Shown: positions 5,249-7,077 of the stretch, piece by piece
How the letters are laid out: each line of letters begins with the position of its first letter
How positions within the stretch are numbered: position 1 is the first letter of the stretch
From: Eledone cirrhosa
Taxonomy: Eukaryota
Length of the DNA: 64,000 bases
Assembly: GCA_964016885.1 (NCBI GenBank)
Contig: OZ024743.1
Location: 31,558,001 to 31,622,000 of the forward strand
Reading direction: 5' to 3'
Position numbers and translations under genes: made by a program
The notes under the pieces: generated by a model
Seen by the model: the letters and a program-made list of their open reading frames with translations, nothing else
What the model was told of the DNA's origin: nothing
Databases searched by the model: none

Positions 5249-5468
5249 GTATATATATATACATATATATGTATATATATATATATATATATATATATAT
5301 ATATATATATATATATATATATATATATATATATATACATATATATGTATATATATATATATATATATATATATATATATATATATATATATATATAAAA
5401 GACGTAAAATAAGAAAATATTTTTTAAAAAATCTTAAAAAATTTTTTTAGTTACTTACTTAAATTTTC

Positions 5469-5550
5469 ACTCCAACTAATTAGTTTCTGCAATGGGATAA
5501 AGACAGTTACATAATCCAACTGTCGAGAATTCATTGCGTCATCAGGGAGT
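5469..5550 (-). ncRNA. Type I hammerhead ribozyme with branched stem II
   Basis: Minus strand: actcc-CTGATGA-c-gcaatg...(gacagtt/aactgtc hairpin)...cattgc-a-GAAAC-taatta-GTT-ggagt. Stem I actcc/ggagt; palindromic stem III. Confidence 0.8.
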
Positions 5551-6020
5551 CTATTCTCAGCTGAGCCTCCAGGCAATGCGCGGACACTAGCGGCTCATAT
5601 AAAAATAATAATTCGGTAGAAAGAACAGCTAGGCGAGGACTGGATTCTACGTACTGAAATTCTCACTGCTTCCAGTCTAATGTCCGATTCTTAAGAATCA
5701 ATCACGTGACATAGAGGCTAGTTAGAAGGAATGGGATGGTAAGATGACTGACGCCTACTAACACCCCAAAAAAATTTTGAAGTGGTTTTGGCAGGTTTGC
5801 TCGACAAATCAGTGATTTGGAGATAAATATAGATAATTTAATATATCAACTAACATAGGCGCACAGATGCACGTCCATGCCAGCAAATACACAGGTTATG
5901 TCATAGTACCTAGGTGGTTCAATGTAGGAGGGTGCAGAACAATAATATAAAAGACGTAAAATAAGAAAATATTTTTTAAAAAATCTTTAAAAATTTTTTT
6001 ACTTACTTACTTAAATTTTC

Positions 6021-6102
6021 ACTCCAACTAATTAGTTTCTGCAATGGGATAAAGACAGTTACATAATCCAACTGTCGAGAATTCATTGCGTCATCAGGCA
6101 GT
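6021..6102 (-). ncRNA. Second tandem HHR copy (one stem I mismatch)
   Basis: Same motif 552 bp away; stem I strand reads actgc instead of actcc. Confidence 0.75.
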
Positions 6103-7077
6103 CTATTCTCAGCTGAGCCTCCAGGCAATGCGCGGACACTAGCGGCTCATATAAAAATAATAATTCGGTAGAAAGAACAGCTAGGCGAGGACTGGATTCT
6201 ATGTACTGAAATTCTCACTGCTTCCAGTCTAATGTCCGATTCTAAAGAATCAATCACGTGACATAGAGGCTAGTTAGAAGGAATGGGATGGTAAGATGAC
6301 TGACGCCTACTAACACCCCAAAAAAATTTTGAAGTGGTTTTGGCAGGTTTGCTCGACAAATCAGTGATTTGGAGATAAATATAGATAATTTAATATATCA
6401 ACTAACATAGGCGCACAGATGCACGTCCATGCCAGCAAATACACAGGTTATGTCATAGTACCTAGGTGGTTCAATGTAGGAGGGTGCAGAACAATAATAT
6501 AAAAGACGTAAAATAAGAAAATATTTTTTTAAAAAATTTTTTAAGATTTTTTAAAAAATATTTTCTTATTTTACGTCTTTTATATTATTGTTCTGCACCC
6601 TCCTGCATTGAACCACCTAGGTACTATGACATAACGTGTGTATTTGCTGGCATGGACGTGCATCTGTGCGCCTATGTTAGTTGATATATTAAATTATCTA
6701 TATATATATATATATATATATATATATATATATATATACCCAAGCGTCAACGGAATTTAACATATACATTTATATATATATATATATATATATATATATA
6801 CATATATATATATATATATATATATATATATATATATGTATATATATATAAATATATATATATATATACACATATACATATATATGTATATATATATATA
6901 AATATATATATATATACACATATATATATATATGTGTGTATATATATATATATATATATATATACACATATATATATATATATGAGTATATATATATATA
7001 TATATATATATATATATATATATATATATATATATATATGTGTGTATATATATATATATATATATATATATATATAT

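Follow-up and report, generated by a model that had tools for sequence, protein, structure and literature searches.

A tandem hammerhead repeat of Eledone cirrhosa with the insertion footprint of PLEs, probably copied round a self-cut 552-nt RNA

In the 64,000-nt stretch of Eledone cirrhosa DNA analysed here (the window), a short non-coding array with hammerhead ribozymes lies between two (TA)n tracts, and it raises the question of whether such arrays grow by duplication in place or are laid down by reverse transcription of an RNA that their own ribozymes release. For the metazoan non-LTR retrozymes of coral, mussel and axolotl, circular RNAs have been shown, and the copying of such circles into tandem cDNA by PLEs has been proposed (Cervera and de la Pena 2020, PMC7229834). 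Vertebrate retrozymes have been argued to be non-autonomous PLE derivatives, by a mechanism that the same account calls unresolved (Li, Clavereau, Pollet 2026, 10.64898/2026.07.22.740005). The array proved to belong to an abundant non-coding hammerhead family with a PLE footprint, which a PLE reverse transcriptase likely produces by copying round a predicted self-cut, circular 552-nt RNA.

Self-comparison of the window bore out the first-pass annotation, which had described about 2.1 near-identical head-to-tail units of 552 nt. Positions 5393-5999 and 5945-6552 are 98.5% identical, giving a period of 552, and the first 552 nt of the repeat differ by five substitutions between unit copies. The unit had been described as free of any recognisable ORF; read as a circle on both strands, it holds a longest ATG frame of 27 aa and a longest stop-free run of 47 codons. 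The annotated inverted end and (TA)n target were likewise recovered, as an inverted copy of window 5823-5999 at 6531-6707 (97.7% identity) and as (TA)n on both flanks of the array (Table 1). The predicted cut-to-cut monomer has a fold z of -2.96 as a linear and -3.7 as a circular molecule. Positions prefixed with U are numbered along the reverse complement of window 5823-6374, on which the predicted ribozyme cut is U349/350.

Table 1. Features of the array and its flanks, in window coordinates.
Feature	Position	Strand	Remarks
Left (TA)n target microsatellite	5245..5396	.	(TA)n on at least one flank in 96/97 insertions sampled
Fixed 3' end A (..TTTTACGTCTTTTATAT)	5393..5409	-	81 nt downstream of predicted cut; putative first reverse-transcription start
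Unit 1, 552 nt	5397..5948	-	self-comparison of window
Type I hammerhead 1, intact	5468..5551	-	core CUGAUGA 5545-5539, GAAACUAAUUAGUU 5487-5474, predicted cut 5474/5473
Predicted cut-to-cut monomer, 552 nt, candidate circular RNA	5474..6025	-	would follow from the two predicted cut sites
AT-rich TATA-like block ATTATTTTT	5594..5605, second copy 6146-6157	-	about 45 nt upstream of ribozyme; ATTATTTTT invariant in three families
E-box block GTCACGTG	5693..5710, second copy 6245-6262	-	CACGTG kept in three families
Unit 2, 552 nt	5949..6500	-	self-comparison of window
Type I hammerhead 2	6020..6103	-	private stem I C>G at 6099; predicted cut 6026/6025
Partial third unit, runs into fold-back junction	6501..6552	-	
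Fold-back junction of the two arms, in A/T tract	6531..6552	.	
Inverted second arm	6531..6699	+	site A 6569-6585; 114-nt tail 6586-6699 to fixed end B (..TTAAATTATCT)
Right (TA)n target microsatellite	6700..7078	.	broken by short non-repeat stretch

The ribozymes were found by a scan for type I hammerhead cores. Each combines CUGAUGA, a stem II of GCAAUG/CAUUGC, GAAA and the palindrome ACUAAUUAGU with a predicted cut after GUU. The first-pass claim of one type I hammerhead per unit with a palindromic stem III stands for both units, with two qualifications that had gone unremarked: unit 2 carries a private mismatch in stem I, and stem II has a C.A mismatch at its base (5538/5488 in hammerhead 1). 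Stem III amounts to two pairs capped by AAUU, inside the palindrome, whose self-duplex was computed at -11.4 kcal/mol; the computed energy of hammerhead 2 is -18.5 kcal/mol, against -22.8 kcal/mol for hammerhead 1. Given the C.A mismatch, the GUU triplet and the two-pair stem III, the ribozyme may be weak, and the private stem I change means that the window copy would free a monomer only if the mutated upstream ribozyme still cuts. The conserved mismatch at the base of stem II marks a natural hammerhead variant that merits assay. Rfam at its gathering threshold gave no ribozyme match in the window, only U6. Searched in the genome of origin (3.0 Gb), a 29-nt ribozyme half gave 4,189 exact matches and its reversed control none, so that the motif is not a chance occurrence.

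Stem II takes the forms GCAAUG/CAUUGC, GGAAUG/CAUUCC, GUAAGG/CCUUAC and GAAAGG/CCUUUC across families. In a set of 10 sequences hand-picked out of 66 distinct ribozyme sequences, 94.4% of cells are paired and 5 of the 16 pairs have changed on both sides. The covariation score of this set is 0.281 compared with at most 0.083 in slid controls, where, the sequences being related, the shuffle count does not amount to a probability. Judging by these compensatory changes in families that have no ORF, the ribozyme fold is under selection. RNA editing was sought among the unit-specific changes; read on the RNA strand, these include 7 A>G and 9 T>C, so that A>G is not in excess.

The family is dispersed and of high copy number, the first 100 of the 4,189 exact matches corresponding to 59 loci, a ratio from which some 2,500 loci are estimated for the whole genome. 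Two samples were taken: 35 loci out of the 150 best genome matches listed, a choice that favours long arrays of young age, and the complete set of 59 loci underlying those first 100 matches, which are consecutive on C1 and 80-98% identical to the window unit. After matches below 80% identity and groups shorter than 150 nt had been discarded, with one locus (L033) counted as two elements and another (L041) split in two by an internal repeat, the samples comprised 97 elements including the window's. The largest arrays reach 14 units, the extent of 5' truncation varies among the sampled insertions, and arrays stop directly in (TA)n, without an LTR. When 496 nt of the unit were queried, it was present in contigs (kind unrecorded) of four runs, organisms A, B and C, a result that speaks of presence only.

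In the RNA sense, the 3' ends of the arms lie at two sites 114 nt apart: site A is at U430 (window 5393-5397) and site B at U545 (window 6699). Two arms, always with their 3' ends outward, make up 62 of the 97 elements; 57 of these pair one end at A with one at B, none pairs A with A or B with B, and the other five have one end at neither site. The consecutive C1 sample gave the A/B pairing in 34 of its 37 two-armed insertions. Single-armed elements (n=35) end at A in 22 cases, at B in 12 and elsewhere in one, and several of them conceal a very short second arm. A near-symmetric fold-back junction like that of the window occurs in 8 of the 62 two-armed insertions. At least one flank is (TA)n in 96 of the 97 elements, a microsatellite in which target duplications are unreadable. 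Published work describes a PLE enzyme that nicks and extends both strands, with starts at two internal RNA sites that define a tail (PMC11167929), and PLE insertions in which an inverted 5'-truncated copy is accompanied by a tail at one end only (PMC8557442). The two-end rule holds equally in P5, an autonomous Neptune-type PLE of the same genome, where it was found in all five two-armed copies in view (25 loci), with a tail of about 35 nt. Because retrozyme and autonomous PLE share the rule within one genome, mobilisation by a PLE is indicated, and the insertion ends make the window element very probably a non-autonomous, PLE-mobilised retrozyme. The annotated inverted end of the array is thus its B arm. 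The first-pass reading of a PLE-parasitic ribozyme retroposon gains support from the pairing of unlike ends and from the multiplication of monomers set out below.

Two sister families, S1 and S2 (523 and 525 nt), are 71-76% identical to the window family and to each other. Both obey the two-end rule. Sites A and B are retained at a spacing of 115-117 nt, as are the core, the C.A mismatch and CUAAUUAGUU. Loci of the sister families are L159-L183, L184-L208 and L209-L238, and the 523- and 525-nt families each have about 3,100 first-look candidates. At least one further sister family has the stem II GAAAGG/CCUUUC. A pattern for ribozymes with a shorter stem II and the same stem III gave 45 matches, which read as deletion copies and further sister families.

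The genome holds young autonomous PLEs, among them Neptune-type elements with 796-aa frames at 97-100% identity, and further families. The clade labels used here, Neptune (P5 included) and Hydra-like, are ones that we presume from motifs, since the only Pfam families recognised were RVT_1 or zf-RVT, in 4 of the 18 flank frames. One young Neptune-type PLE (L145-L152), in which the scan detected no type I hammerhead, has 796-aa frames and a long microsatellite-filled 3' region. Beside the array itself, window 7079-8425 (-) is the 3' region of an autonomous Hydra-like PLE, 96% identical to what follows a GIY-YIG frame at locus L094; it has its own hammerhead (7170-7265) and two fixed ends about 77 nt apart, and it lies in the same (TA)n tract.

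With such elements at hand, the unit might itself be nothing but an autonomous PLE's pLTR that was duplicated or persists in truncated form. In the five PLE family groups examined, no 3' region showed pLTR homology to the unit, and none of the PLE 3' regions from the flanks, from Neptune-type P4 (14 loci, 4 without a recognised frame) or from P5 showed pLTR similarity. Six PLE protein probes were compared with the 2.5 kb upstream of the 35 single-armed elements and matched three, only one of which, L085, was same-sense and contiguous. There the unit is joined to a Neptune-type PLE ORF region without intervening (TA)n, as a pLTR would be. However, the junction pattern has a single match in the genome, which makes L085 a one-off template switch or a nested insertion, and the remaining 25 copies listed for that PLE end have either its own termini or another element. 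Attachment to a PLE ORF, the alternative that the first-pass annotation had weighed, was thus confined to 1 of the 35 single-armed insertions, at this unique junction; all examined insertions except L085 have head-to-tail units without an ORF. The pLTR reading is in our judgement largely refuted and has next to no probability left. The chimera itself (L085:3615-7140) consists of a Neptune-type PLE 3' end and 1.4 retrozyme units in one (TA)n-bounded block. Short resemblances between site A and PLE ends were also seen; they are not counted as evidence.

The nature of the copied RNA can be approached from the arms. A cut linear monomer would yield arms of 81 nt (A) or 195 nt (B) only, lengths that most arms of the C1 sample exceed (43 of 47 for A and 31 of 45 for B). 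Unit differences amount to 0.44% within an arm (277 pairs), 0.52% across arms (135) and 4.5% between insertions (26,947). An indel at the cut site was found in 0 of 256 units, a count that profits from a choice of loci favouring intact junctions. Of 153 arm 5' ends, three (in L041, L054 and L083) lie exactly on the predicted cut at U349-350, where 0.74 were expected (p about 0.04); in the surrounding 12 nt there are 9 against 4.5 expected, and in 18 nt 10 against 6.7 (p 0.13). These ends give a weak hint of cleavage in vivo.

Sample-private variants in multi-unit elements comprise 130 confined to a single unit, 11 fixed and 11 partial ones. Five of the fixed variants span both arms, in four elements, three of which were checked genome-wide. 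G254A of L035 has six genome matches, five of them in L035 (both arms) and the sixth on another haplotype; this lone outside copy was considered as the parent of L035 and rejected. All four matches of G150A of L045 are inside L045. T526C of L124 was rejected as a private variant, its 41 matches representing a small subfamily. L268 has one CpG variant, once per arm. Ten of the 11 partial variants are confined to one arm, so that local duplication also lengthens arrays later. The long arrays L038:1091-8758 and L051:1966-7622 contain two- or three-unit periodic variants in one arm, a pattern that suggests local duplication or a multimeric template. In L273:707-2950, the array units share eight or nine substitutions absent elsewhere in its subfamily, three of which are A>G on the RNA strand.

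A candidate parent and daughter came from the L124-type T526C subfamily, of which the other 14 loci were examined and 25 monomers compared. L266 (C2) has T489C in one of its units and G197A in the adjoining downstream one, which places both within one cut-to-cut monomer. In L269 (C4), all 4 units that cover position 489 have T489C, and they come from both arms; position 197 is covered by the long arm only, where again all 4 units have the variant, G197A; other variants of the neighbouring L266 units are absent from L269. The T489C pattern has five genome matches, one in L266 and four in L269. Neither change is at a CpG, and among the 25 monomers compared no other shares either of them. The three L269 monomers are identical; compared with the L266 monomer, they show a single substitution, at a CpG, outside the masked A/T tracts and a one-base difference inside a tract. 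On the plain reading of this one pair, the L266 monomer would have been exported and then multiplied into both L269 arms. Because variants of one L266 monomer are fixed in the covering L269 units, the monomer was most likely multiplied at insertion. Ectopic gene conversion or a lost intermediate could possibly mimic the pair, and the monomer boundary is bracketed to 197-488, an interval that holds the cut (352) but also site A (433). L278, in which G197A is present and T489C absent, could stem from a previous export of this monomer or from linear reading of a single L266 unit.

We regard a covalent circle as the probable template of reverse transcription, and two linear templates have to be set against it. 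In one, a PLE enzyme copies uncut multimeric transcripts of the arrays, which regrow by local tandem duplication, while the ribozyme is a passenger derived from a pLTR. The PAc element offers a precedent: its enzyme uses uncut RNA in vitro, cleavage is dispensable with uncut RNA as the main template, and the cut lies 85-92 nt upstream of the starts, in the same geometry as here (PMC11167929). Local amplification is also preferred for the vertebrate retrozymes (10.64898/2026.07.22.740005), and arrays of up to 14 units and the one-arm partial variants, which indicate local duplication, are in keeping with it. L278 has G197A without T489C, as expected from a linear read of one L266 unit, but this equally fits an earlier export of the same monomer. 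Against uncut multimers, L269 fixes two variants that are found together in only one L266 monomer, the assembly contains no multimeric source for L035 or L045, local duplication cannot bring a variant into an inverted arm, and the compensatory changes point to selection on the ribozyme in ORF-less families. We consider this explanation unlikely.

In the other, the cut linear monomer is the template and multimers arise by repeated end-to-end template jumps, without a covalent circle. Monomer multiplication would be explained equally well, and the few 5' ends exactly at the cut agree with it. Template jumps by other retroelement enzymes usually add or lose bases, however, and the 256 units are free of indels at the cut. 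Known retrozymes, moreover, accumulate as circles (PMC7229834), and we think jumping from end to end distinctly less probable still than copying of uncut multimers.

A circular template would fit into the following scheme, of which we infer all RNA and enzyme steps. Transcription would pass through two ribozymes, perhaps from the unit's own E-box/TATA-like block, and cleavage, probably dimer-assisted via the palindromic stem III, would release a monomer that a host ligase would close into a circle. The GIY-YIG endonuclease of a PLE would nick both (TA)n strands, extension round the circle would begin at site A for one DNA end and at site B for the other, and the resulting cDNAs would be joined at their variable 5' ends. 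The E-box and TATA-like blocks are perhaps a promoter of the unit's own; TCACGTGAC of the E-box block also occurs twice in the 3' region of the Neptune-type P5. Retrozymes seem to be without promoters according to a review (PMC7761336). On balance, we lean to the view that the genome proves the proposed step: the L266 monomer, cut by its ribozymes, would have been circularised and reverse transcribed in rolling fashion by a PLE enzyme from both ends of a staggered (TA)n break, at two fixed starts 114 nt apart. With its own promoter, any insertion of ~1.5 units could then found a lineage, and the pedigrees of circles would be readable in the genome. The retrozyme cycle of cut, circle, tandem cDNA and PLE partner is a proposal in print; this family tells it from local amplification by sequence, names two RNA sites where copying would begin, and provides a protein-free substrate of 552 nt for asking how PLEs form tandem, inverted, tailed insertions.

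The element is a new animal non-LTR retrozyme, and a link of retrozymes to PLEs has already been hypothesised (PMC7229834; 10.64898/2026.07.22.740005). The newer part appears to be the unusually direct genomic evidence of monomer multiplication at insertion. We found no publication with two-armed retrozyme insertions or inheritance of monomers between loci; subscription papers and supplements, such as that of PMC7229834, could hold them. Like the metazoan non-LTR retrozymes, the window family has tandem units that lack an ORF, are low in GC and bear a single type I hammerhead whose short stem III has a palindromic loop, and like axolotl HHR_Amex2 it has a mismatch at the base of stem II (U.U there, C.A here); dimer-assisted cleavage is reported for the axolotl motifs (PMC7229834). 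Its unit of 552 nt is longer than the 150-450 nt of metazoan retrozymes, and the portions of that source drawn on here mention neither back-to-back arms with fixed ends nor (TA)n targeting nor a lack of visible target duplications (PMC7229834). Circles have been shown for those retrozymes (PMC7229834), whereas in the window family they are predicted and it is the copying step that has genomic evidence.

The vertebrate retrozymes, with units of 51-972 bp, are similar in that tandem hammerhead units co-occur with PLEs, whose enzymes are argued to act on them; the evidence in the material cited is co-occurrence and pLTR homology and leans to local amplification, and of nine predicted retrozyme dimers eight were without cleavage and one was cleaved (10.64898/2026.07.22.740005). 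In the window family, by contrast, no homologous pLTR was found in the PLE groups examined, and insertion ends and variant inheritance favour amplification at insertion. With the EN+ PLEs (Poseidon PAc, PMC11167929; Neptune and Naiad, PMC8557442) the family shares partial tandems, an inverted 5'-truncated second copy, a tail confined to one end, targets rich in AT or made of (TA)n, and a hammerhead upstream of two starts. Unlike those elements, as these two sources describe them, the retrozymes here have no ORF, a tail of 114-117 nt instead of the usual 30-40, a canonical long stem II and arms of many units. Chlamys has non-autonomous PLEs, MRC1 among them, whose 3' sequence generally recurs in an autonomous family; no such family was found here, and no hammerhead is described for them in the part of the source compared (PMC8557442).

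Other repeats of the window also carry hammerhead-like sequences. A short inverted-repeat element at 5040-5244 surrounds a degenerate hammerhead-like core between (TA)n tracts, and nothing matching it turned up among the first 35 loci. Further cores that resemble hammerheads and belong to other repeat families lie at 16359-16438, 26973-27091, 32392-32453, 35711-35789 and 39526-39588, several of them with a palindromic stem III. A LINE at 52-2933 (-) has a 632-aa RT frame (Pfam RVT_1) with broken endonuclease-like frames upstream, and a Neptune-like RT fragment is found near 39133. The U6 match at 12141-12245 (-) is full-length but diverged (80.5 bits) and is probably a pseudogene, and a 69-nt tandem occupies 23670-24350.
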